From Candidatus Saccharimonadota bacterium (GTDB lineage Bacteria; Patescibacteriota; Saccharimonadia; Saccharimonadales; UBA10212): a DNA stretch of 58,078 nucleotides. The notes beneath the pieces are model-generated. The model was not told the origin of the DNA. It worked only from the letters and a program-made list of their open reading frames with translations, and did not search any database. Position 1 is the first letter of the stretch, and every line of letters begins with the position of its first letter. The DNA is taken from positions 1 to 58,078 of the forward strand of contig JACPKF010000006.1 of the NCBI GenBank assembly GCA_016187125.1. The letters run 5' to 3'. Position numbers and translations under genes: made by a program. Of this stretch, positions 1-57,481 are shown in pieces.

Positions 1-1054
<1,054 letters not shown>

Positions 1055-17680: not shown

Positions 17681-18045
17681 TAGTGGCGCCGGACAAACCG
17701 TAAGCCGGGTTCTGTTTTATCTAGCCATCTATCTAGCCCGCCAATCACTCGGCGGATCAAGCGGTTCTTATGACAAGCCGCGGATGGACTCCTCTTATAT
17801 GCGACATATCTCCTTGCAGCAGGCAGGGTTTACCTCCTCCGACAATCACTCGTCGGAGCTGTGGGCTCTTACCCCAACTCGTTTCACCATTTCCATGCTC
17901 TTTAGGGGCACGGTTGTGTTGTTTCTGTGGCACTTTCCCTGGGGTTGCCCCCGGTTGCTGTTAGCGACTACCACTGTCCATATGCTGCCCGGACTTTCCT
18001 CCAACCAAAAAAGGCTGGTAGCTAGTCGTAAGTCCGACGCCACTA
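17681..18045 (-). ncRNA. rnpB: RNase P RNA, bacterial type A
   Basis: The rc contains GGAGGAAAGTCCGGGC, GGGAAAGTGCCACAGAAA, GGTAAGAGCCCAC and ACAGAACCCGGCTTA. P1 pairs TAGTGGCGTCGGAC with GTCCGGCGCCACTA. Confidence 0.95.
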
Positions 18046-34921: not shown

Positions 34922-35359
34922 GTGAAATGTATATATTGTGGTGGTGAAACTGAAGTCACTAACAGTCGAGCACAAAAACGCAGTAATCAGATATGGCGAC
35001 GCAGGCAGTGCCTGCACTGCAAGAGCATTTTTACGACTCACGAGGCCATTGAGCTAAGCAGTTCCCTATTTGTAGAGGCTAAGGGCTCGCCTAAGCCCTT
35101 TTTAACCGATCTTTTGTTTACAGAGGTGCTTTTAGCGCTCCAGGATCGGAAAAACTGTTATGTAGAAGCTCGTGAGATTACCTCAACCGTTATACGCCAA
35201 CTCTTGAGCTTACCCGATAAGCCACTGCTCAAACCGCACCAGATAAGCGAAGTTACAGCTAATGTCCTAAAACATTTTAACCGACGAGCTTGGTTGCGCT
35301 ACGTGGCTGAACACGACTCTTTACAAGGCCCGGCCTTGCAAAGAGTCGCTAGGCTCTAG
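34922..35359 (+). CDS. nrdR: Transcriptional repressor NrdR
   Basis: Zinc ribbon CIYCGG...CLHCKSIFTTHE, followed by an ATP-cone-like remainder. Confidence 0.9.
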   Translation: MKCIYCGGETEVTNSRAQKRSNQIWRRRQCLHCKSIFTTHEAIELSSSLFVEAKGSPKPFLTDLLFTEVLLALQDRKNCYVEAREITSTVIRQLLSLPDKPLLKPHQISEVTANVLKHFNRRAWLRYVAEHDSLQGPALQRVARL

Positions 35360-35629
35360 TTGTTAAGTCGCTAGTCTCGAATTTTCATCAAAATGGTTAT
35401 AAGTTATTATGTCAGTCCCAGAAGCACACGCTTGAGCACAGTTCAAGGAAGTTACGCGCAATTAGGCTAGAGCGACACACTCGAATAAAGCGCACGGCGC
35501 CAGCGAGGATCGAACCGAGGTGTATAAATAATACATCGAGGGAGAACCGGGGCTGGCAACAAAGCGATTTGCCGAGAACCTGACGGTGTGTCCAGCTTTG
35601 CTGGACGGCAGGTCAGGCGGTGTGTAGCT

Positions 35630-37222
35630 CTAGTCTTTTCTGACGGCTTTTTCTGTTACAACAAAACCCAAATACCAGCCAAGCATTAGCCTGGTCTGAG
35701 AGTAAATGGCAGCAAATGCTCCATAAATAATTGTGGTAGGGACCAGATATGCCCATTGGAAAATCATCCAGAAAGTTCGGCGACGCTTGTAGCGGGCTGG
35801 TTTGGGCGGCAGGCTGCGGAAACTCAAAAAAAGAGTCACCAAAATACCAGTCATTGCCAACGTCTGCAGGCGGCTGGCTAACTGCGGCAGTTGATTAGCG
35901 ATATAGCTGTTAGGATTAATGAAGAACGGAACCAGCGCGGCCAGAAGCAGGATTAGAGGCGCTGTAGCCCAGCTGACATGTGTTTCTAAAAGTCTTAAAA
36001 ACTTGGCCCAAACTTTATATTTGGGAATGTGGTTTTTCTTAAAAAATCCCTGATTGGCCACGTAGGCTACATCTGAAGCCCCCCAGGCCCAGCGCCGTAC
36101 CTGAATAAACTGCATCTTCAAAGTCTTGGTATATTTATCGGTAAAAACCACGTCTTGATAAATAGGCACGTAAATCGGAAAAACTTCATGGTGGCCGTCA
36201 TAGCGGAACCAAGTACGCCAGAATTGATGGCCATCTTCTACGATGGTCCGAACGCTCCAAAAATCAGTATCAATCAGGGCTTCCATTGATTGAGAATGGG
36301 CCGAGAAATTACGCAGCAAATGTTGGCGCAGAGATAGCACCGTATTCCAAAGAGAGTTGCCGGTAGCAATCACCCGCATCGGCGCCGGCGCGTCCCAGAT
36401 GTTATTGGTGTACATGGTTATCGGCTGGTAAGAAGCATGCTTGGGCTGCTCGGTCGAACAATACGTATAGGTCAAAACCGCGAAATATTGCTTGTGCGGC
36501 CGGTTGTCGGAGTCGAGTGTCGTTACTAAAACATTTTTAGAGTCAATTTTTTCTTTTTCTAAATAGCTTTTTAGCCAGCGCGCAGCGTAAGTTACATTAC
36601 CGCCCTTGCCGATAATTTCGCCGACTATCGGCCAAGGATGCATTACCGCCTCGGCATGGTAAAAGTAGTGACCATATTTTTCGACTAAATCTTTGGCCGT
36701 GGTTTCCACTTCCGGGCCACCGCGCTGCTCATAGGCCAAAATCAGAATCAACTTTTTTAGATCGTAATTGCTATTTATAACGGATTGAACTGTCGGTTCT
36801 ACCACGCCGCGCGATTCGTTATAAAAAGCAATAAAAACGGCGTGATAAATCTGGCTCGGGGCAATACGCTGGGAGGCCGGAATATACTGACTGACCCTTG
36901 CCAAGTTCTTGATATGCCAAGCAAGGGTCCGGTTAGGCTTTATGTCCGGATTTTCTAGATCTTGGTTGAGTTTTTCCCAATCAAGTTTTTGATGTTCTTC
37001 CTTTAAACGCCACCCTTGAAGAGCCCTAATATTTAAACCAATGACTCGTACAAACCAAAGTAGCAGAAAGGCTACTATAAAGTAGGCGGCTAGTTTTTGA
37101 TTTATCAGGCTCAAGCCGGCCGGCAAAAACAAAATTGTCCAGGTCAGGGCGCCCGGCAAAATTTCAAAAGCCCGATATCGCCAATCGCGCTCGTCGGGCT
37201 GTGGAATTTCGATTGATCTCAT
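35630..37222 (-). CDS. Processive family-2 glycosyltransferase (cellulose/chitin synthase-like), membrane bound
   Basis: It has TM segments at both ends, plus TLDSDN and QVRRW (QxxRW) motifs. Confidence 0.8.
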   Translation of the reverse strand: MRSIEIPQPDERDWRYRAFEILPGALTWTILFLPAGLSLINQKLAAYFIVAFLLLWFVRVIGLNIRALQGWRLKEEHQKLDWEKLNQDLENPDIKPNRTLAWHIKNLARVSQYIPASQRIAPSQIYHAVFIAFYNESRGVVEPTVQSVINSNYDLKKLILILAYEQRGGPEVETTAKDLVEKYGHYFYHAEAVMHPWPIVGEIIGKGGNVTYAARWLKSYLEKEKIDSKNVLVTTLDSDNRPHKQYFAVLTYTYCSTEQPKHASYQPITMYTNNIWDAPAPMRVIATGNSLWNTVLSLRQHLLRNFSAHSQSMEALIDTDFWSVRTIVEDGHQFWRTWFRYDGHHEVFPIYVPIYQDVVFTDKYTKTLKMQFIQVRRWAWGASDVAYVANQGFFKKNHIPKYKVWAKFLRLLETHVSWATAPLILLLAALVPFFINPNSYIANQLPQLASRLQTLAMTGILVTLFLSFRSLPPKPARYKRRRTFWMIFQWAYLVPTTIIYGAFAAIYSQTRLMLGWYLGFVVTEKAVRKD

Positions 37223-44729: not shown

Positions 44730-47054
44730 CTATCGGATAGCGCTATAGGATCGCTGGTTCCCCCGGGGCTTAACTATGCAAGCCCTGAGCTTGGACTTTC
44801 GATTGACTGGCGCCGGTTTTTGAGTTTTTGGGAACTGACGCCTATTGGACTGGCAAGCAATCTTGCCCTTGTAATTAGGTGGCGCTAATTTCGGGATTGG
44901 CTTAGGCAGAGATTTGGGAACGGATGGGGGTCTTTGGTTGGAGCGGGGTCTTGAATTGGATCGGGGTGGTGAGGCCGGAGGTGGAGCTGATTCAGGACCG
45001 CGGACAGGCGTTGATCGCGGGGTTGGGGATGGAGTCAGCTCAGGACCGGAGGCAGGTGTTGATGTTGAGGACGGAGTTGACTCTCGGCTAGGAGCTGGTG
45101 CTGCTGAAGGTGAAGTTGGATGCGGGGATAGCTCGGAGCTAGGAGCCGGTGATTGTGCGGGAGAAGTAGGAATTGAAGTTGACACGGAATTTGGTGAGGA
45201 TGCGGGAGTCAAGGTTGGCTCAGAGGTGCGAGCTGATGGAGGGGTTGGAGACGAGGTCAGCTCAGGACCACGGGCCGGCGATGATGTGGAAGGTGGAGTT
45301 GAGGATGGAGTCAGCTCAGGACCACGGGCCGGCGATGATGTGGAAGGTGGAGTTGATTCAGAAGCAGGAAGGGGTGATGTAGCGGATGGAGTAGGTGGAG
45401 CAGCTGGGGGTGATTCAGGACCAGCGGCTGGCGCCGGTTGTGGAGCTGGCTCAGGGCTAGGCGCTGGTGCAGAAGGTGGGGTTGATGACTCAGGACCAGG
45501 CGCTGAAATCGGCTTATCAGGTGTAGAAGCCGGTGTAGAAGCACTGGTAGCGCACGCCATTGGCGGGCCCTGCACCATACTACCCTCCATGGCATTGGCG
45601 GGCACATCAATTATTGGCGGATTGCCCAAACATACCAACATATCTTTAGAGGAGACGTAGCGGTACTGTCCGCCGATACTTTCGAAGACTTGGCCATTGG
45701 ACATGTTGCGAAAGAAGGCTCCTTGAGGTGGAGCCATAGCGGAACCTTGATAAAGTCCATATATTGCCCGTGTTTCGCGTAAATCTGGGCTGCCATTAGT
45801 ATGCAGGTATTTTAAGAGTGGGGTTGGATAAGGGTGAAGCACATACCCCTCGTTTTGATTATTGCCAGTAACGCGAAATTGCTTAAGATCCTCAGGCGTT
45901 TTTACCACTATCTGCGGTGGGAAGGCACAAAGTACCGGTACGCTTGAGTCGTGAATCTCGACAGTTCGGCGGGCAGATTGAGGAACTATATTAATAGTCG
46001 ATCTGCCGCTTGTGATTTTAATACATTCCAAAACGGCATTGTTATTAGCATGCAAGCCAAACCAGCCATATGACCGTAGATTTGCGACCCTTACGGTAGG
46101 ATCGCCGGCAACCCTGTAAATCATGCCGTTTTCCATGGGCAATGGTTTACCGGTAAAGTCCCATAGCCGCATAGTATTTGGGATCATCTGAGCCTTGTTG
46201 CGCACATTCAAATCATCTACTTCACCCTCGGTAATGGTATAAGCGTTTTGACCGTAAAAATAATATTGTTGTTTTTCGTCTTGTCTATAAACTGCAGTGC
46301 CGTGACCGGGTGGATGGTCTCCTGGCCCAGGATATCCGACTTCGTTATTGTGCACATCCTCAGTACTGACAGTTGCGCTTGGCTTTTCACCCCAAGTTTT
46401 AGTATCGGCGTCTGTCCATTGATCCATATGCTTTATCCACCACAGCCGCCCTCCAACCTTTGTATAGGCATGCCGTTCCTGCGACATAACTTCTCCACCC
46501 TCACCTATCTGGTTATATGCAACAGTGCTAGGCGCCGTATTCCCGCCATTAGAGCCTGTTGAGCCACTCAGCCTGTTACCAACTCCGTTAACGTCAATAT
46601 AGTGATCGGCATCTACTTTACTTGTGCCATAAGCTTCGCCCCGCTGAGTAAAGTTTCCATGTTCATCTTTATTAAATTCAGAAACATTGACCGATCCATC
46701 TGGATTAACACTATCAACGAATGCGACGTGAGTGCTATCCCATTGGGCTATATCACCGGCTTCCGGTCCAGTCTTTTCTGGGTCCAGCCCAGAAACTTTA
46801 TAGCCGTCATCATGTGCGCCCGTATCCCATGTATTAGCACTACCCCAATCCGATGGAATATTGACTCCGAACTCTTTATTAGCCCGCCACGCCGCATAAG
46901 AAGTACAGTTCCTGACAACAAAACCCCAGGGGTCGCTTTCATGATATACATCATTTGTTCCGGGTTTGGTGACATTGAAGGTGTTACATGTTCCTGCTGC
47001 TTGCATAGCCGGCTGACATTCCGTATAGCCCCAGTCATAGACAGGTTGATTCAC
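44730..47054 (-). CDS. CHAP-domain cell-wall hydrolase with a large middle region and a Pro/Ser/Thr-rich repetitive tail
   Basis: CHAP motifs are NCTSYAAWR (Cys) and THVAFV (His). The C-terminal tail is low complexity, with a 54-nt tandem repeat at ~45247-45356. Confidence 0.85.
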   Translation of the reverse strand: MNQPVYDWGYTECQPAMQAAGTCNTFNVTKPGTNDVYHESDPWGFVVRNCTSYAAWRANKEFGVNIPSDWGSANTWDTGAHDDGYKVSGLDPEKTGPEAGDIAQWDSTHVAFVDSVNPDGSVNVSEFNKDEHGNFTQRGEAYGTSKVDADHYIDVNGVGNRLSGSTGSNGGNTAPSTVAYNQIGEGGEVMSQERHAYTKVGGRLWWIKHMDQWTDADTKTWGEKPSATVSTEDVHNNEVGYPGPGDHPPGHGTAVYRQDEKQQYYFYGQNAYTITEGEVDDLNVRNKAQMIPNTMRLWDFTGKPLPMENGMIYRVAGDPTVRVANLRSYGWFGLHANNNAVLECIKITSGRSTINIVPQSARRTVEIHDSSVPVLCAFPPQIVVKTPEDLKQFRVTGNNQNEGYVLHPYPTPLLKYLHTNGSPDLRETRAIYGLYQGSAMAPPQGAFFRNMSNGQVFESIGGQYRYVSSKDMLVCLGNPPIIDVPANAMEGSMVQGPPMACATSASTPASTPDKPISAPGPESSTPPSAPAPSPEPAPQPAPAAGPESPPAAPPTPSATSPLPASESTPPSTSSPARGPELTPSSTPPSTSSPARGPELTSSPTPPSARTSEPTLTPASSPNSVSTSIPTSPAQSPAPSSELSPHPTSPSAAPAPSRESTPSSTSTPASGPELTPSPTPRSTPVRGPESAPPPASPPRSNSRPRSNQRPPSVPKSLPKPIPKLAPPNYKGKIACQSNRRQFPKTQKPAPVNRKSKLRACIVKPRGNQRSYSAIR

Positions 47055-50167: not shown

Positions 50168-53100
50168 TTAATAGAAAAGCGTAGCAAAGGCTGTGCCCAC
50201 CCAACCATCTTCTTTAGATGTGCAGGATACCGTTATGCTGCCACCGGGATGCAAACCACCAATAGAAAATGTGCCCGATGGATACGGAATTGGACCGCTT
50301 CCAGAACCATTATTAGCTGACCAGGACTCGTTGCAGCGTAATATTGTACCATTTGCTTGCGAGGAAGCATAAGACACTGAGGTGCGATTACACTTGCGTT
50401 GGGCATTTCTCGAGATGCATCTATTGTCAGTAATAGTAACGATCACATCTCCCCTAGGTGGCCCTGGTGGGGGTGGGGGTGGGGGGTTTGAGCAGTCATT
50501 TTGAGCCGCATCAGTGGCATATATACCTTGTTGGCCTCTATCGGCACAGGTTTTCCAACGAACTGTTTTGCTATCACTCCCACGTACACTGCCATACTCT
50601 GGTTTTGGTACACATGAAACATATACATCCTTTATAAAATCATAGTTGTTACCCGGTTGAGTATAGCGAGGGAGATCAAACCAACCAATGGTGTAGTCGA
50701 TCCATTTGCCCTGCCTAGACCAATGCTGCGAACCACGGCCATTATTAGAAGTATTTATCTTTACTCCCCCGGTAGATATTTCACAATATGCTATCTTCGA
50801 TCGATTATCAAAAGTGTCCGTTCCTTGATAGGCATCTATGTCAAAACAAAGTACTAACCTATGTAGTCCATCACGGCAGTCATTAGGCGTTAGAGGTTGT
50901 GATGTCTTGAAGCTAAAGTCATAATCGGAATCCGGCCAGATCCAGATAGTTGAGGGTTTGGATATAATAACGTGGACTGGTGGCGCGACGACGTCAAAGG
51001 ATTTATTGGCGCTGCTAGCTCTGGTACCCCAGGGCTCCACTCCTGAATGAAATGTGCCGCTATAGTGGCCAGGGCCTACCGTTTGGCTGGCGGCATTACC
51101 TACCCCCCTACAGCCGTTTGTAACGGCGGCCAGCTCTGGCGTACAGTCAGTAAAGTAATAAAACCCGGCGCCGGCAGCAAATGTCGGGCAGGCTCCATTC
51201 CAGGATAAGGTTCCGGTTCCATCGCCTTTGTCAACTAGATTCCAATCCGCAGTACAGGTTGGGGGGGATTTTTTTGTATCCCCATTAATACCAACATTCC
51301 AAGTCCTAGAGAAAGAACCGCCAGGATTATCGCAAGTAATAGTGTAAGTTTGGGTGCCATTATCTCTCCAGTTAGTAGCTATGGTTTGGTTGTCGTTTTT
51401 AGGCTGGCCTTTAAGACCCGACAGTGAAATTGGCGTCGGCCAACCGGAAGAACTACAGCTGCTGGAATTGCCGACTGACCAGCTTAGGGTGAAGGAATCA
51501 CCGGCAGTGATAGAACTTGGTCCAGAAATTGTAACCGTGGGCGGCGGCCAGGTAACTGTTAAGTTACGAGTATAAGTAGCCTCTCGAGCGGGAGGATCAT
51601 TACAAGTAATAGTGTAAGACCGGGCGCTGGTATCATCCCAATCGGTAGCTATGGTTTGATTGCCACTAATGGGTGCACCGCCGGGGTTGGAAACAGGCGA
51701 AATAGCTGGCGTCCAGTCATCGCTAAATTGGCACTGACTGGCATTATTAGCATTCCAAGTTAGAGTAAAGGAAGTACCGGCCACAACTGGGCCGGGATCC
51801 GATATGGAAGCCGTGGGGGGCGGCCAGGCGGTGACGGTTCTTTCGAGTGGGGCTCCGCCGCTGCCGGGGCCGCTACAAGACAGCGTAAAAGTAGTTCTAT
51901 TGGTTATGCTAGGGATGTTTTGACTGCCGGTGTTGGTTGAGCCGGACCAGGTTGAGGGAGGCAGATTTTTATTGCCGCTCCAGTCAGCCCTTGGCGCGGC
52001 GGCCCTGGCGCTACAGCCACCAGCGGCATCGGTACTGGTCCAAGCCAGCGCGGCACTGCTGTCAGTGTAAGCGGTGCCTTTTTGGCCAAAGTCATCAGTG
52101 GTTTCGCTGTCTACGGCGTTAATTGTGAAATCTAGAGTCGGCGCCGGCGTATATATAATAGGATCGCCCAATTGATTACAGACGGCTGGAGGGCCATCTA
52201 ACTGGGTATAGCTATAGGGACTAGTAATGCCAACCAGACGCTTGCAAACAGCGCCGGCGGAACGGAGGGCGTACTCCGGTATGGAGTCGCTGAAAGGATC
52301 AATATTTTCATCGCTGCCGCTAATATCGAGTCTAGCCTGCAGCCGCTTAGCCACCCCGCCTGAGGTAGCCGTAGCGTCAATTAATGCTTGTACACGCAAG
52401 ATTTTCAAGATTTGACCGCCGGCGTTGTTAGCTTGAATTCTGACATCAGCTTGATTGTAAATGGGCGTAAGCCGCAGATAAAAATAATCGAGCTTGTCGG
52501 GCAGCGCGATAGCCGCGGCCAGGTTGCTAATAATAAGGTTGCAGGTGAAGTCGGCACTGCCGTTAAAGCTGCCAACCCCGAGTTCTTTAGTGCAAGCCAC
52601 CGGCAATGGACTACCGTTCTTCATGGCGGAGTAGCTCTGCGTCGGCACCGGACCTGAACTGCTTTGAGGGTATAAGAAGACGGTTTTAGAATTAGCCTCT
52701 AAATTAGCCACGCTACCGCCGGTTGGCACCGGATAAAGCGTGAGCCTGAGCAGCGGCAAATAGTTGTTGGCGGAACCGTTCCAAGTTGTTATATCCAAAA
52801 GCGGGGTACTCGACGGAGGATAGCCGGTGACTTGAGTATTTGTCGGCTGCCAAGATAGCATGATTTTATCTAGTTCGCCGGGACTGGCCGAAGTGGTCAT
52901 CTTGATAACCCGGGATTTACTGGGCGGCAGTCGTTGGTAAAGGAGGTCTTTGGGCTCTTGATTAACTAATAAGCAAGTGTAGCGGGTACTGCGCCCGGCA
53001 TCGCCGGACAGATTGGAATCATTATAAAACGGGCCGGGTGCGGTTGAGCTGCCTATCAAGCTTCCCTCGCCGCTGCAACTAGTCGAAGCAGCCGTGGGGT

Positions 53101-53347
53101 GATCCTTGATATAACTAGCCGCGTCATTAATAGCCGACTGAGCGCCGTAACTGGCAATATTACTGGCTTGATTGTTGGTTGAGTTGTTAACCGAGCGGTC
53201 CGTGAGGCGGGCAAAACCCAAACTTATTAGGGTTATAACCACCGTCAGCACCGTAACCACGACAACCGAGGCCAAGCCCCTTTCACCACGCACCTGTTTA
53301 GGCATAGGCATAAGCTTAATTCTACTAGATTGGCGCCCAATTTTCAT
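50168..53347 (-). CDS. Giant PilX-N-domain protein (pilus-associated adhesin-like) with three tandem ~95-aa domains
   Basis: The N-terminus ERGLASVVVVTVLTVVITLISLGFARL resembles PilX_N. Repeats have the form WPPPT..I....V.AG.SFTL.W......C......YTITC. There is a poly-Pro tract PPPPPPPGPP. Confidence 0.7.
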   Translation of the reverse strand: MKIGRQSSRIKLMPMPKQVRGERGLASVVVVTVLTVVITLISLGFARLTDRSVNNSTNNQASNIASYGAQSAINDAASYIKDHPTAASTSCSGEGSLIGSSTAPGPFYNDSNLSGDAGRSTRYTCLLVNQEPKDLLYQRLPPSKSRVIKMTTSASPGELDKIMLSWQPTNTQVTGYPPSSTPLLDITTWNGSANNYLPLLRLTLYPVPTGGSVANLEANSKTVFLYPQSSSGPVPTQSYSAMKNGSPLPVACTKELGVGSFNGSADFTCNLIISNLAAAIALPDKLDYFYLRLTPIYNQADVRIQANNAGGQILKILRVQALIDATATSGGVAKRLQARLDISGSDENIDPFSDSIPEYALRSAGAVCKRLVGITSPYSYTQLDGPPAVCNQLGDPIIYTPAPTLDFTINAVDSETTDDFGQKGTAYTDSSAALAWTSTDAAGGCSARAAAPRADWSGNKNLPPSTWSGSTNTGSQNIPSITNRTTFTLSCSGPGSGGAPLERTVTAWPPPTASISDPGPVVAGTSFTLTWNANNASQCQFSDDWTPAISPVSNPGGAPISGNQTIATDWDDTSARSYTITCNDPPAREATYTRNLTVTWPPPTVTISGPSSITAGDSFTLSWSVGNSSSCSSSGWPTPISLSGLKGQPKNDNQTIATNWRDNGTQTYTITCDNPGGSFSRTWNVGINGDTKKSPPTCTADWNLVDKGDGTGTLSWNGACPTFAAGAGFYYFTDCTPELAAVTNGCRGVGNAASQTVGPGHYSGTFHSGVEPWGTRASSANKSFDVVAPPVHVIISKPSTIWIWPDSDYDFSFKTSQPLTPNDCRDGLHRLVLCFDIDAYQGTDTFDNRSKIAYCEISTGGVKINTSNNGRGSQHWSRQGKWIDYTIGWFDLPRYTQPGNNYDFIKDVYVSCVPKPEYGSVRGSDSKTVRWKTCADRGQQGIYATDAAQNDCSNPPPPPPPGPPRGDVIVTITDNRCISRNAQRKCNRTSVSYASSQANGTILRCNESWSANNGSGSGPIPYPSGTFSIGGLHPGGSITVSCTSKEDGWVGTAFATLFY

Positions 53348-54378
53348 GGCCCCTGCCCCCTATATACGCCCGTAGCCAGACGGCTAACGGCGCAGAATTG
53401 TTGGTTAGAGGAACCGCCTTTGCAAAAAACGGTGCTGGGATCATTGGCGACTGTGAAGTCTAAAAGCTCATCATCACCATAAGCTACCACCACCGAGACA
53501 TTGTAGAAATTGGGGCTGACACTTAGGTTTTGTTGCAAGTTAAATGACTCCAGGCGCATATTATTGCCAAGTATTTCTATAGGCTGATTAAAGGCCACGG
53601 CTCCGGCCGGACAGGCTCCGCCGGCAAGATCATCGCAGGGCGTGGCGCAGGCCGTAGCCCCCGGCAGTACATCTTTTAAAAGACCAAAGTTACCGCCAGC
53701 GGCCAGCGGAGCGTGTTTGGGAGTATCCGCCAAGTTGACTTTTTTGCCAATATTATAAGTGTAGCGGCTATTGCCGATACAGTAGTAGCTGTAGCCACCA
53801 GCGTTTTGAGGCGATGAAATATTAGCGGCCGTTTGGAAATTGCCGACTATGTCCTGGAACAGTTGATTAACCACGCTTTGAGTTTGGGTGGATGATACGC
53901 CTTGATAAAACAAACGGCCGATTTGCAAAAACCCGGCCAGGGCTGTCATCAGTACCAAAGAGAACACGGCTGTAGCTATTAGAAGCTCAACAATAGTAAA
54001 TCCCCCAGAACTTTTTGGCCGGGCTGGTCTGTTTTGGGCAAAGCCCAAATTCTGCCAGCCCTCTTGGCGCATTGCGGTGTCAGCTGCGTCCGTTACTCGC
54101 TCACCGTATTCTCCCATACGGCTCGCTCGCTTCACACCTTTGCTTTCTTGCACTGCATCCAAGCCAAAATGTCTGGCCTTTTTGTGTATCCTTCGTTGCA
54201 TAGACAATATCCAGCTCTGAAACCAGGTTTTTTTCTTCCCCTGGCTGGCTTGCGCTTTACTCAAGCACGTACGCCAGATGCTACTAACTACAGTAATAGA
54301 TCGGCTCGGTCCTAAATGCTGGATAAATTTCTTATTCACGCAGGCCGTTTTATGATTATTAGTGTTCTTCATGGTCAT
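53344..54378 (-). CDS. Type IV pilin-like (pseudopilin) protein 1; start uncertain, probably 54117 or 54072
   Basis: The prepilin motif is SSGG|FTIVELLIATAVFSLVLM. The stop overlaps the PilX-like start (ATGA). Confidence 0.8.
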   Translation of the reverse strand: MTMKNTNNHKTACVNKKFIQHLGPSRSITVVSSIWRTCLSKAQASQGKKKTWFQSWILSMQRRIHKKARHFGLDAVQESKGVKRASRMGEYGERVTDAADTAMRQEGWQNLGFAQNRPARPKSSGGFTIVELLIATAVFSLVLMTALAGFLQIGRLFYQGVSSTQTQSVVNQLFQDIVGNFQTAANISSPQNAGGYSYYCIGNSRYTYNIGKKVNLADTPKHAPLAAGGNFGLLKDVLPGATACATPCDDLAGGACPAGAVAFNQPIEILGNNMRLESFNLQQNLSVSPNFYNVSVVVAYGDDELLDFTVANDPSTVFCKGGSSNQQFCAVSRLATGVYRGQGP

Positions 54379-54390
54379 TGCCTGTTGTTT

Positions 54391-55230
54391 TTACGGCCCC
54401 GGACCCGACACAAAACTATTATTGGGCTTGTAATACAGAGTGGTTTGATTAGGCACATTATTGGCCGACTGCCATGTGACTGTAGCCGTAAAAGTCTTAG
54501 AGGCCAAACTGTAATTATCAACCACGCTGTAGGGGCTCTGGTTATCGGGATTAGTCTCGCCAATAGGCAACGAGCAGACTCTGGTAGTGCTATCCACTTC
54601 TTGCAGCTTAGCGTCTGAAGGATTTATACAAAACGGCCGGTTGAGCTTGTAAGCGCCAACTGTAGGCGGCCGCTGGTTGTCGGCTGTTTTTATAAGTTCT
54701 ATTTGGGCCCGGGCATAGGTTAGGGCTTGGTCGCGGTACTTAGCATTAAGGCCGCTTTGCAGGCTATGCGTTGAAGAAGTGTAGGCCGTGGCTAAGACAA
54801 TAGCTAGTACTGCTGTGCTTATCATTACTTCTACAATCGTATCCCCCCTGCCGGATCTTACAGGCCCCGCCAGCCTGTTCAATGGCACAGCCATTGATGC
54901 CGCTGGCGGTTTTGGCGAATCACTGCGTTGCAACTTGCGATACTCATTCAGCGTATTACATATACGCCTCACTGCGTTTCTCAGTTGCGCCTTGTGCTTC
55001 ATCCAAACCTGGAATCTCCGGCTCGGCAGTTGATGTTGCCCGTCGCTCAAGTGCGCACGGCTGGCACTCGGCACCCAGTTCTGAAACCAGTTATTTCTAC
55101 TGGGACTGCTTGCTTGCAGCGTATCCAAGCCAAAAGCTCTAGCAGTTTTGAGCATCCAGCTCTGAAGCCAGGTCTTTTTGTCGAGCCTGCTTTTTACTTT
55201 TTGCTTATTGCTGATTACTTTCATGGGCAA
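54391..55230 (-). CDS. Type IV pilin-like protein 2; start uncertain, probably 54894
   Basis: The prepilin motif is SGRG|DTIVEVMISTAVLAIVL. Confidence 0.8.
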   Translation of the reverse strand: MPMKVISNKQKVKSRLDKKTWLQSWMLKTARAFGLDTLQASSPSRNNWFQNWVPSASRAHLSDGQHQLPSRRFQVWMKHKAQLRNAVRRICNTLNEYRKLQRSDSPKPPAASMAVPLNRLAGPVRSGRGDTIVEVMISTAVLAIVLATAYTSSTHSLQSGLNAKYRDQALTYARAQIELIKTADNQRPPTVGAYKLNRPFCINPSDAKLQEVDSTTRVCSLPIGETNPDNQSPYSVVDNYSLASKTFTATVTWQSANNVPNQTTLYYKPNNSFVSGPGP

Positions 55231-56477
55231 CCTTCCAGATTCAGTCTGGTGGTAATGCCGGTAGCGGTGCCTTGGACGGCAAGTTGAGCCCTCTTGCTAC
55301 CGGTTGAGTTGGCAACACACAAATTCCAGCTTTTGCCGATAAGCGGATATTCGGTCCCCGAGCCGCAACTGCTCCCCTCTATGCACGAGCGTAAGCGCAC
55401 TGATTTGGCATCGGTGGAGCTAAAGGCGTAGTTGCGAGTGGAGGCCGTGATTTGGCTTCCGGAAGTATTATTATTTTGTAAACTGCTATAAAGCGTCAGT
55501 AGGTCTTGTTCGCCAGAATCGGCCGCTGTGGCCGAGACAATACTCAACCCATTTAAAAGTTGATATTGTTCGACTAATAAAAAGTTGCCGCTGGAGTCCA
55601 GAGCTGGCTCGGGGTTAGCGGCCGCGACGCTGGCCGGAAAATCTCCGGTGTCTACGGTACCGTTATGAACCGTGCGCAACCCAAAAACCGGATAGTTATA
55701 GATACTGTCGCTGCCGGGGATTATCTGGATGGCCCGGCCTAGATAAATACAGTCCTGGTTAGTGGTGTCGCTGCTGCCGGCCGGCGCGGTGGCAAGTACT
55801 GGATAGACTTTGCCATCCGGCATCAGACTGCTAACTTGGCAGGTATAAGCCTCGCCCGCAGGCAAAGCCGCCGAGCTGACTGAATTGGCGTAGTTTTGAA
55901 ATTTGGACTGCAGATCGTACACCGCTTGAGAAAACTCTGTGGCTGCTTTGCGGCCACCAAATACGCCAATTGAGCTGACTAGTATTGTGCCGCTGATAGC
56001 CAACACTATTAAAACCTCTATGATGGTGTACCCCCCAGCCAACATACGCACTACAGCAGCCTGCCCGCCAGCGGAGCTGGCAGCGCCGCTGCTGTTTTTG
56101 GCGCTGTACGGCGTTACAGGCTGCGATACTCGCTCACTGTATTGCATATACAGTTCCCTGCGTTTCTCGCCTGCGCCTTGTACAGCATCCAAATGCGTAC
56201 CTTGGCCATTCATTGTCTTTACGGCTCTTCTGTAGAGATTATTGCGTTGCTTGTCTTTTCCTTGTGCTGCATCCAAGCCAAAAAGTCTGGTACTTTCGGG
56301 CATCCAGTTCTGAAACCAGGGTTTCTTACCATACCTGTCTATACGCCTCACTGCGTTTCTCGGTTGCGCCTTGTGCTTCATCCAAACCTGAAACCTCCGG
56401 CTCAGTAGTTGACCTGGCATTTTACTTAAGTGCGTGCGCCTGGCACAGCGTCCCAATGCGAATGTTGGCCCACTCAT
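55221..56477 (-). CDS. Type IV pilin-like protein 3; start uncertain, probably 56147 or 56045
   Basis: The prepilin motif is MLAGG|YTIIEVLIVLAISG. Confidence 0.8.
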   Translation of the reverse strand: MSGPTFALGRCARRTHLSKMPGQLLSRRFQVWMKHKAQPRNAVRRIDRYGKKPWFQNWMPESTRLFGLDAAQGKDKQRNNLYRRAVKTMNGQGTHLDAVQGAGEKRRELYMQYSERVSQPVTPYSAKNSSGAASSAGGQAAVVRMLAGGYTIIEVLIVLAISGTILVSSIGVFGGRKAATEFSQAVYDLQSKFQNYANSVSSAALPAGEAYTCQVSSLMPDGKVYPVLATAPAGSSDTTNQDCIYLGRAIQIIPGSDSIYNYPVFGLRTVHNGTVDTGDFPASVAAANPEPALDSSGNFLLVEQYQLLNGLSIVSATAADSGEQDLLTLYSSLQNNNTSGSQITASTRNYAFSSTDAKSVRLRSCIEGSSCGSGTEYPLIGKSWNLCVANSTGSKRAQLAVQGTATGITTRLNLEGCP

Positions 56478-56593
56478 TATCTAGAGTATAGCATAAGCGG
56501 ATAGGGGTGGTTCCCCTATAGCCATTAGCTTCTAGCTCATAGCCACCAGCCTGAAATGTTTGGGCTAAGTACTAAAAGCTAGGTACTTAAAAG

Positions 56594-57481
56594 CTAAATT
56601 AGTAGCTGTGTGTACCAATCAATGATTGGCTCGCCAAACAGTAGCGTCAGAGCCGTAGATAAAATAAGCCAAGGACCATAAGGCAGTTTGGAACTAAAGC
56701 TTTGTCGCTTGGTAATCAAACGTGGAATTACAAACAGGGTGCCTAAAACCGAGGCCAGAAAAATCATTAAAAAACTTTTGGCCGGACTGGCTAAAACGCT
56801 GCCGGTTATCAGCCCCAGACGAATGTCGCCGTAGCCAATCCAGCGGCCGGAAGAAATCATAAATAGTACCCAGAAGATACCGCTAGCCACCAAAACGCTT
56901 AGCCCTAAAAGCCAAAAACTGCGGGCTTTGTCCTGAGCAAAAAACAAAATATAGGCCAGTCTACCACCAAGCGCCAACGCCAATGTTGGATATAAAATGC
57001 GGCTGGGCAATATCATCCAGCGCAAATCATAAACAGCCAGTGCTAGCAGGCCAACGCTAGTTGCCAGCCAGCTTACCAACAAAACCCATTGGCCGGCCGC
57101 GATATGAAGCGGCCAAAAATAGTAAGACGCTACAAAAACTGTAGCGCCGGCAATTTCTACCAACGGATATTGTACCGAAATTGGCTTTTGACAGTAGCGG
57201 CAGCGACCCCTCAAAAATAGCCAGCTCAAGACCGGCACCAAATCCTTAGACACTAGCAGGTGGTGGCAATTTACACACTGGCTTCGCCCGGAGAGAATTG
57301 AGAATTGAAAATGAGTAATTGGCAAATCTTTGGAGTTTATCGCTTTTTGCTTATTGCCTGTCCACCGTAGCCTTAGCGAAGGCGGGCTTATTGCTTGCTG
57401 GCGCACTCGCCAGACCAGAGCGTTAACAAAGCTGCCAAAACAAAGCCCCAAGCCAGCCAAAAGCATAAGAGTTAAGATCAT
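56594..57481 (-). CDS. pilD: Prepilin peptidase (A24 family)
   Basis: A Cys-rich box CVNCHH...CRYC, then PLVEI, GYGDIRL, and a polytopic membrane layout. Confidence 0.88.
   Translation of the reverse strand: MILTLMLLAGLGLCFGSFVNALVWRVRQQAISPPSLRLRWTGNKQKAINSKDLPITHFQFSILSGRSQCVNCHHLLVSKDLVPVLSWLFLRGRCRYCQKPISVQYPLVEIAGATVFVASYYFWPLHIAAGQWVLLVSWLATSVGLLALAVYDLRWMILPSRILYPTLALALGGRLAYILFFAQDKARSFWLLGLSVLVASGIFWVLFMISSGRWIGYGDIRLGLITGSVLASPAKSFLMIFLASVLGTLFVIPRLITKRQSFSSKLPYGPWLILSTALTLLFGEPIIDWYTQLLI

Follow-up and report, generated by a model that had tools for sequence, protein, structure and literature searches.

A folded, interspersed repeat element in the leaders of three pseudopilin genes and at other sites in Saccharibacteria genomes

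Introduction

Three neighboring pseudopilin genes of a Candidatus Saccharimonadota bacterium raise the question of what the repeated DNA is that separates their start codons from the regions encoding the mature pilins, and whether it is translated. The stretch of DNA analyzed here, called the window below, comprises 58,078 nucleotides (GenBank assembly GCA_016187125.1, contig JACPKF010000006.1, positions 1 to 58,078). In an earlier note, which was made from the sequence alone, the open reading frames (ORFs) of the three genes were seen to extend far upstream of the prepilin motif, and the extensions were described as mosaics of DNA modules that are shared between the genes and read in different frames. 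Structured 5' leaders, target sites of regulators and substrates for recombination among pilin loci were offered as explanations. In this study, the modules were traced to a larger, folded element, which was detected between genes as well as in-frame within genes of other Saccharibacteria. That this element forms a family of dispersed, structured repeats, some copies of which lie in-frame within genes, is, in our judgment, nearly certain. A fuller account, in which an element resembling the Rickettsia palindromic elements (RPE) settled in the pseudopilin genes and the resulting long leaders are translated and cleaved off, is the explanation that we favor as fairly probable.

Results

Three pseudopilin genes with extended leaders

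The three genes are located on the minus strand, directly downstream of a gene for a prepilin peptidase of the A24 family (56594-57481, minus strand; Pfam A24_N_bact 3.3e-27, Peptidase_A24 7.2e-09), the enzyme expected to cut their leaders off. ORF3 (55221-56477, minus strand, 418 aa) has a leader of 149 codons (56477-56031) and a mature part that begins at 56030 (YTIIEVL). ORF2 (54391-55224 within the ORF 54391-55230, minus strand) has a leader of 127 codons (55224-54844) and a mature part from 54843 (DTIVEVM), and ORF1 (53344-54378, minus strand) a leader of 126 codons (54378-54001) and a mature part from 54000 (FTIVELL). The extension upstream of the prepilin motif, put at 100-145 codons in the earlier note, was measured here at 126-149 codons from the conserved upstream starts, and with these starts no short leader would precede the cleavage glycine. 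All three proteins possess the N-methylation motif G↓(F/Y/D)T(I)(V/I)E (arrow, cleavage site) followed by a hydrophobic helix. The Pfam family PF07963 (N_methyl) matches residues 122-147 of ORF1 (24.6 bits), 131-150 of ORF2 (18.3 bits) and 148-167 of ORF3 (17.0 bits), and at the Pfam cut-off of 21.2 bits ORF1 alone passes. Source databases name the orthologs prepilin-type proteins and label them Candidatus Saccharibacteria. Proteins related to ORF3 are mostly ~270 aa long and lack the extension, which occurs in few relatives, and the leaders of element-free orthologs span a few to ~25 residues (e.g., MRG↓YT and MIRRQGG↓YT).

The shared modules within the leaders are real. The module CCTGGTTTCAGAACTGGATGC gave four matches (at most three mismatches) where 0.01 are expected by chance, TTGGCTTGGATGCAGCACAAGG gave two (0.00 expected) and the core TTGGATG..ACAAGGCGCA gave four (0.01 expected). 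Between the 71-mers at 54963-55033 and 56342-56412, 66 of 71 bases agree (93%), and in the repeat search (family D2) this pair extends to 107 nt at 84% identity, whereas the mature pilin parts are far more diverged and share ~29-30% identity in a global protein alignment. Within ORF3, translation of one and the same module yields QVWMKHKAQPRNAV at the first of two sites and HLDAVQGAGEKRRE at the second. On all these points the description given in the earlier note was borne out.

The modules are parts of an element with a conserved fold

In the following, labels beginning with L (L001 and so on) denote loci of other genomes, W the copies in the window, and numbers such as P0057 proteins, while P0 to P4 are helices of the element. 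The complete element is ~170-185 nt long and folds into a three-way junction of P0, a helix P1 that encloses a P3/P2 hairpin, and P4. In P1, cTTGGATGCAG.. is paired with ..ATGCGCCAAg, and the P3/P2 hairpin has the form GCCGTAT-loop-ATACGG. P4, a long hairpin downstream of P1, has an internal loop that is conserved and a tip of the form GC-TNN-GC. Module B (TTGGCTTGGATGCAGCACAAGG) corresponds to the P1 5' strand, whose partner ..ATGCGCCAAG lies ~85 nt downstream, and module A (CTGGTTTCAGAACTGGATGC) represents the P1 5' strand in a variant subfamily, where CTGG is paired with CCAG (L004a, L005). The closing helix P0 is formed by ~15 nt before the core together with the last core nucleotides and a few beyond. 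Its sequence is specific to each copy yet always self-complementary: the duplex of a copy with itself has a mean energy of -22.5 kcal/mol compared to -10.0 kcal/mol for non-self duplexes, and of 57 copies, 39 paired best with themselves, while in 52 the self duplex ranked within the top three.

An alignment of ~155 nt could be built from nine full copies of the window and five further loci, and RNAalifold predicted 42 base pairs for them, 26 of which show compensatory changes. In a covariance-model alignment of 14 copies, 95.4% of the cells are paired, as opposed to 31-39% when the partners are slid by 1-3 columns; 29 of the 42 pairs change on both sides, and none of 500 shuffles reached the observed values. 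G-U pairs (144) greatly outnumber A-C combinations (39), which means that one strand folds, here the sense strand of the pilin genes. The minimum-energy structure of the copy W3c reproduces P0, P1, P2, P3 and P4 (-94.3 kcal/mol, z = -6.1). Fold prediction and covariation thus both uphold the proposal that conservation acts at the level of the nucleic acid and not of the protein; more exactly, it is the secondary structure that is conserved, with compensatory base changes. No Rfam family matched the region 53800-56700 at E-values up to 10, and across the whole window Rfam 15 returned only rRNA, RNase P and tRNAs at the gathering score.

Leaders are mosaics of one full copy and several fragments

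Each leader consists of one complete element copy adjoining the cleavage site, preceded by two to four fragments. The fragments retain the 5' part of the element only (P0-5' and P1-5', some up to P2-5') and stand in differing frames, and as a consequence a single ORF can contain two different translations of one module. The ORF3 leader is headed by 3'-truncated fragments (56340-56471, minus strand; repeat family D2 and alignment with L004). A P0/P1 5' remnant (~56471-56440) starts immediately after codon 2, and a 107-nt fragment (56446-56340) comprises P0-5', P1-5', P3-5' and P2-5', contains the 71-mer and is read in frame f0 (QVWMKHKAQPRNAV). A weak covariance-model match was obtained at 56269-56390. 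By repeat and module matches, module A, module B and a deleted copy occupy 56208-56327 (minus strand): module A (TGGTTTCAGAACTGGATGC, 56318-56300) is a variant P1 5' strand that aligns with that of L004a/L005-type copies, and module B (TTGGCTTGGATGCAGCACAAGG, 56281-56260) is followed by an internally deleted copy ending in GGCCAAGG. The full copy W3c (56038-56207, core 56042-56197 plus P0, minus strand; 155 bits) is read in frame f2 (HLDAVQGAGEKRRE...), and ATG 56045 falls within the 3' strand of its P0.

In the ORF2 leader, fragments at 55040-55179 (minus strand; repeat families D1 and D4, module matches) comprise modules A' and B' (55179-55110), a module A'' (55089-55071) and a CGCACTTGAGCG-type P1 5' remnant (~55060-55040). 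They are followed by the full copy W2b (54850-55024, core 54856-55011 plus P0, minus strand; 160.9 bits), which is read in frame f0, has 0, 6 and 3 stop codons in its three frames and a P0 self-duplex of -27.8 kcal/mol, and carries ATG 54894 within the 5' arm of P4. The ORF1 leader contains a module A fragment (TGGTTTCAGAGCTGGATAT, 54207-54225, minus strand) and the full copy W1 (54005-54178, core 54010-54167 plus P0, minus strand; 129 bits) in frame f2, with ATG 54072 in the P1 3' strand (AATGCGCCAAG). Counterparts of W1 exist at the same locus in L003 and L004, and one ORF1 ortholog shows the same element arrangement as the window.

Subfamilies differ between genomes at one and the same site. 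At the position of the first pseudopilin gene, L004 (1106-1264) and L005 (4027-4182) carry a diverged subfamily in frame 0, while the window (56042-56197) and L006 (6080-6235) carry the common type in frame 2; this difference suggests replacement or independent insertion. Downstream of the three pseudopilin genes, a 1059-aa pilin-like protein (50168-53347, minus strand) has a short leader (…RGERG↓LASVVVV), and the leader of its counterpart in L008 (9888-12626) holds a full element and a fragment, so that the presence of the element varies between these two genes.

The element is dispersed between genes in both orientations

The modules are not specific to pilin genes: one copy in the window is intergenic between convergent genes, and elsewhere copies occur in both orientations and in unrelated housekeeping ORFs. 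The covariance model found four full copies in the window. The fourth (35465-35634, core 35476-35629, plus strand; 119.8 bits; 1, 2 and 2 stop codons in the three frames) lies between an NrdR-like gene (34922-35359, plus strand) and a gene for a 530-aa protein (35630-37222, minus strand), and the CTAG at the end of its P0 provides the TAG stop codon of the latter. A P1 5' fragment is present just upstream (~35428-35452). At locus L041, a copy was observed at the equivalent position beside an ortholog of the 530-aa gene.

A degenerate pattern was scanned against one genome per species (185,579 species), and matches were subjected to confirmation by the covariance model. Among 43 loci found, the model confirmed 40, with 44 matches, and almost all of these belong to metagenome-assembled genomes (MAGs) of Saccharibacteria/Saccharimonadales; three are labeled Patescibacteria group, Binatia or 'bacterium'. 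L040 (DATKKU010000043.1), from the MAG labeled Candidatus Binatia, holds the element at 145 bits and may be a misbinned Saccharibacteria contig. Pattern matches in a Dehalococcoidia MAG, Paenibacillus and Ferrimonas were not confirmed by the model and were dismissed as chance. A scan of viral contigs with the element gave no match.

Relative to their flanking genes, intergenic copies are oriented in sense in tandem (~10), in antisense in tandem (9), or lie in convergent (5) or divergent (5) regions; these counts are approximate and derive from the scan, which found copies regardless of reading frame. The ends of intergenic copies often read CTAG...CTAG, and the genes on either side use these TAGs as stop codons. 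Many sense copies have the Shine-Dalgarno sequence and the start codon of the following gene placed within the P0 3' strand or immediately behind it. These next genes, read from their translations, are presumably yebC (L001, L039) and rplJ-like (L015), ybaB-like (L035), rpmA-like (L014), metG-like (L017) and obg-like (L020) genes. In antisense, the reverse complement of P4 with a T run scores as terminator-like (56078-56094 and 54017-54029 of the window, plus strand), and in ~15 antisense intergenic copies (L010-L052) the opposite-strand gene has its stop codon 0-6 nt away from the 3' end of the element. These signals at the element ends suggest that insertion is harmless or even useful. One copy lies between the stop codon of ComEC and the start codon of YebC and carries stop codons, and in one ComEC the called ORF both begins and ends in element-type sequence. 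The presence or absence of the element differs between orthologous loci.

In-frame copies interrupt unrelated enzymes

Copies within long ORFs are sense-oriented, and the match to the host domain is split or stretched by the insert. Hosts identified with Pfam are the NAD-dependent DNA ligase LigA, Fpg, an MGMT-like protein, a uracil-DNA glycosylase (UDG), a TlyA/FtsJ methyltransferase and a Mur ligase. In LigA, 61 aa are inserted within the zinc finger, between the positions of residues 417 and 420 of E. coli LigA (PDB 2owo), and the length of this insert equals P0 plus core. The idea that P0 derives from pre-existing terminator hairpins was rejected, since P0 is also present in genic copies and forms part of the insert in LigA.

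An exhaustive search of 1.84 billion representative proteins with the peptide profile of frame 2 (f2) yielded 240 protein clusters; a word-indexed search with the same profile returned only eight short ORFs. Longer hosts in this frame include FolD, a TsaD-family protein, TruB (two cases), DHFR, a methylpurine glycosylase (MPG), NrdR, PrmC (two), Dus, TilS, an RluA-type synthase, Y-family polymerases (two), a malic enzyme and pilins. Among the matches listed (P0060-P0211), roughly two thirds are predicted proteins of 50-70 aa. These appear to be intergenic element copies that were called as genes, and they would then represent a systematic annotation artefact in Saccharibacteria MAGs. Many hosts are DNA-repair or replication enzymes (L016, L047, L018, L050; P0111, P0133, P0164, P0192), and many others modify tRNA or rRNA. 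An enrichment of DNA-repair functions, hinted at by the first six cases, was dropped when the wider search gave enzymes of tRNA/rRNA modification, of folate metabolism and others.

The leaders are open in the frame of the pilin genes

Reading frames differ markedly between classes of copies. Only nine of 38 intergenic copies are stop-free in any frame (frame 2, 7 copies; frame 0, 2; frame 1, 1), and their core lengths are distributed 13/14/11 over the remainders modulo 3. The genic copies are stop-free in frame 2 and have core lengths that are multiples of three (6/6 each), and none of the 13 pilin and ComEC leader copies has a stop codon in the downstream gene's frame (10 of 13 with core lengths that are multiples of three). 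In the window, there is no stop codon in the gene frame over the 149, 127 and 126 leader codons of ORF3, ORF2 and ORF1, as against 10 and 4, 10 and 7, and 8 and 9, respectively, in the other two forward frames.

Conserved signals are located upstream of the insertions. A box GCTTATGCTATACT (TGn-TATACT, extended -10-like; 56485-56498, minus strand) ends 7 nt before ATG 56477, and the box GCTTATGCTATAMT with an ATG 7 nt further on is invariant across five loci (window, L004, L005, L006 and L008). In the element-free L008, the aligned ATG, equivalent to ATG 56477, opens MIRRQGG↓YTII. A simple sigma-70 promoter scan did not report the TGn-TATACT box because it has no -35 match. We take the box as the putative promoter of the operon, of the extended -10 type, from which the mRNA would start leaderless or nearly so. 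ATG 55224 of ORF2 and the TGA of ORF3 overlap as ATGA, with GGAAGG in front, and the protein P0057 starts with MKVISNK. ATGA overlaps are found at both junctions in the closest relative (L004), and the pseudopilin genes of element-free loci overlap likewise.

The ATGs at 54117 or 54072, 54894, and 56147 or 56045 had been regarded as the likely true starts. Given the conserved box and ATG upstream, the ATGA overlaps and the open frame of all 13 leader copies, these are probably not the main starts. ATGs 56045, 54894 and 54072 have no recognizable Shine-Dalgarno sequence and lie within P0, P4 and P1, respectively. Conservation of the extensions as protein in one frame, which the earlier note counted against its own reading, was seen by half: in relatives the extensions are open in one frame, while the peptide sequence is not conserved.

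Other features of the window

A gene for a 774-aa protein with an N-terminal CHAP domain (44730-47054, minus strand) is located near the pilus genes. The window further contains a partial 16S rRNA gene at its edge (1-1054, minus strand) and the RNase P RNA (17685-18037, minus strand).

Discussion

In this study, we describe a folded element that makes up the leaders of three pseudopilin genes and recurs at many other sites. Past mobility of the element is likely because orthologous loci differ in its presence and because inserts sit in enzymes that are conserved across bacteria. The element would have inserted at many genomic sites in the past, in either orientation between genes and in sense and in-frame within them, and in the window it would have landed directly behind the start codon of each of the three pseudopilin genes, in the part that encodes the leader. 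Translation would then proceed from the ancestral starts (ATG 56477, ATG 55224, and ATG 54378 or 54372), and the ribosome would read through the element mosaic to give leaders of ~126-149 residues. The neighboring prepilin peptidase would cut at G↓(F/Y/D)T and leave the mature pilins unaffected. The frame of each module would reflect where each fragment landed, with an open frame but not a peptide sequence being kept. Judged from the sequence, the leaders are thus probably translated from the upstream starts and subsequently removed by the peptidase.

Several observations speak against this account and have to be weighed with it. Full copies within a genome are 52-69% identical and no closer than pairs between genomes (mean 61%), and hence there is no sign of recent mobility, with the exception of the 71-107-nt fragment that is 84-93% identical in two neighboring leaders. 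In the flanks of 57 copies, no target-site duplication was evident by eye, and the ends of the 57 copies have no conserved terminal repeat and share only a loose C(T/C)AG...CT(A/G)G. No transposase or partner insertion sequence turned up in the 8-kb loci, where no dedicated search for them was made. When one locus is compared across species, its copies have accumulated 7-14 compensatory pair changes versus 0-4 broken pairs, which implies that the fold is selected after insertion, unless gene conversion occurs between copies. Such selection in place is not explained by a purely selfish, dead element. With respect to translation, leaders of 126-149 residues would far exceed the short leaders known for type IV pilins, and the ATGs 56045, 54894, and 54072 or 54117 could be used in addition or instead. 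Furthermore, some leader copies were found through protein matches to long ORFs, which introduces a bias towards open frames. Five leader copies free of this bias (L021, L003b, L004b, L004c and L008) are all open, for which the chance is ~8e-4 if at most 24% of non-coding copies are open in any frame.

The selection on the fold lends some weight to the view that the element is a structured RNA with a function for the host: a site for RNase III/RNase E processing or for RNA stability, a gate for translation, with the Shine-Dalgarno sequence or start codon sequestered by P0, or an antisense terminator. It would be selected locus by locus, might tune individual pseudopilins, and is compatible with a mobile origin. 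The compensatory changes at the same loci (7-14 against 0-4 breaks), the old copies (52-69% identity) that are still 95% paired, the start signals in or after the P0 3' strand in many sense copies, and the terminator-like P4 with a T run and the ~15 antisense copies 0-6 nt after a neighbor's stop codon all point in this direction. However, the orientation relative to flanking genes is mixed (~10/9/5/5), a regulatory role is hard to see for copies located well inside ORFs, no function is common to the host genes, and with the short intergenic regions of these genomes nearness to starts and stops is partly unavoidable. We consider a host function the main rival and possible but would not expect it to be the explanation. 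More narrowly, the leaders might be untranslated, pilin-specific structured 5' leaders or intercistronic regulatory RNAs, with translation starting at the internal ATGs. The region is indeed strongly structured (z = -6.1), internal ATGs precede the G↓FT motifs closely, and most database orthologs (~270 aa) have no extension. The structured nature of the leaders, which had been proposed before, is therefore retained, but their pilin specificity is not, as the element is dispersed. Moreover, all leader copies are open in the gene frame while most intergenic copies are not, the -10-like box and ATG lie upstream of the insertions with the ATGA overlaps kept, and the internal ATGs lack a Shine-Dalgarno sequence and are buried in P0, P4 or P1. 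Untranslated leaders are therefore unlikely. A pilin-specific riboswitch was also considered and rejected, as position and orientation of the element are not constant.

Recombination among the pilin genes in the manner of antigenic variation, for which the repeats would be the substrate, appears very improbable. The 71-107 nt shared at 84-93% identity by the ORF3 and ORF2 leaders suggest a recent duplication or gene conversion, but the repeats are confined to the leaders and absent from the variable mature parts, and the same element occurs at many sites without pilin genes. Contigs from four groundwater DNA metagenome runs that cover the locus showed no joints, deletions, length variants or recombinants, although rare variants drop from contigs; the only other matches were short and partial and came from other element copies in the same samples. 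Cassettes for pilin variation and diversity-generating retroelements were discarded: the repeats do not match the variable mature region, and contigs show no variants; no search aimed at a reverse transcriptase was made. Equally, we give very little credit to the notion that the extensions are a genuine repeated N-terminal protein domain, despite the open frames and a recognizable f2 peptide profile (xLDxVQGxxExRxxxYxxYxE...AKS..G..GSA..QA). The frames differ (f0 in W2b, L004a and L005, f2 elsewhere), the changes compensate for base pairing and are not conservative for residues, intergenic copies with stop codons in all frames keep the fold, and the peptide is found at arbitrary positions in unrelated enzymes.

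A bolder proposal, which we put forward only tentatively and as a whole, is that the element, more than tolerated selfish DNA, represents a class of structured nucleic-acid modules of Saccharibacteria that has gone unrecognized, with a fold selected at each locus, even within ORFs, either as a host RNA signal or as a mobile element recognized by shape. In its host version, a protein particular to the lineage would read the signal, which might govern processing, stability, translational gating or termination. In its mobile version, a structured RNA or single-stranded DNA intermediate would be recognized by its shape, and cleavable leaders would serve as safe harbors.

The RPE are ~150 bp, self-folding, dispersed repeats that occur between genes and in-frame in housekeeping genes; their inserts add a hydrophilic peptide while the ORF stays intact, and the mechanism that mobilizes them is not known (PMC10969869). 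Our element resembles them in being dispersed, self-folding, intergenic and in-frame within unrelated housekeeping genes, and it shows the features of such a class: many dispersed copies of ~100-200 nt, a stable self-complementary fold, and frame-preserving insertions in unrelated genes. Unlike RPE, the Saccharibacteria element has a branched three-way junction, strong covariation, a strand bias and a closing helix specific to each copy; cleavable prepilin leaders contain it as a stack of several fragments and a full copy, and the phylum differs. Most likely it is a selfish element that is functionally RPE-like, an assessment by analogy in which it is set apart from the Rickettsia elements by taxon.

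Other small repeats of bacteria, such as Correia/NEMIS, ERIC, BOX and MIRU, are short, dispersed and self-complementary and lie near gene boundaries. The element shares these traits with them and with MITEs (miniature transposable elements with inverted repeats), being short, of non-coding size, dispersed, self-complementary and close to gene boundaries. BOX is also similar in its modular, truncated make-up, MIRU in keeping frames open between operon genes with overlapping stop and start codons, and small bacterial repeats in that some copies supply Shine-Dalgarno-like or terminator-like signals. Unlike MITEs, the copies are old (52-69% identity) and not near-identical. A role as integron attC-like sites was excluded by the lack of an integrase or cassette array and by the conserved core. 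As in cis-regulatory leader RNAs, there is a multi-helix, covarying fold, and in several sense copies the start codon or Shine-Dalgarno sequence of the following gene falls within its closing helix. Unlike riboswitch-like leaders, the element is found in either orientation, between convergent genes and in mid-ORF, with no coherent gene set and no Rfam match. The pseudopilins themselves resemble type IV prepilins in the three genes with an N-methylation motif and hydrophobic helix and in the prepilin peptidase next door, but differ from class III signal peptides in leaders of 126-149 residues of repeat sequence, if the upstream starts are used. Neither full-text literature searches nor Rfam 15 contained a description of the element. 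Apparently, this folded Saccharibacteria element of ~170-185 nt has not been described before and belongs with in-frame interspersed palindromic repeats.

For annotation, the element yields two kinds of artefact, namely long N-terminal extensions on pilins and ComEC, and short 'hypothetical proteins' of 50-70 aa, both of which a covariance model would flag. The strand-specific and well-supported fold is a good candidate for structure probing and for finding a protein that recognizes it. Type IV pili are described as central to the way in which Saccharibacteria live as episymbionts. If leaders of more than 120 residues are made, a prepilin peptidase would face an unusual substrate, and a leader that is cleaved off would offer a place for insertion at no cost. 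More generally, the ultrasmall and streamlined genomes of the Candidate Phyla Radiation (CPR) carry an old interspersed element in-frame in essential enzymes (the zinc finger of LigA, DHFR, FolD and TruB). Rickettsia, from which the phenomenon is known, would be joined by a second and independent case, likewise a symbiont with a reduced genome.

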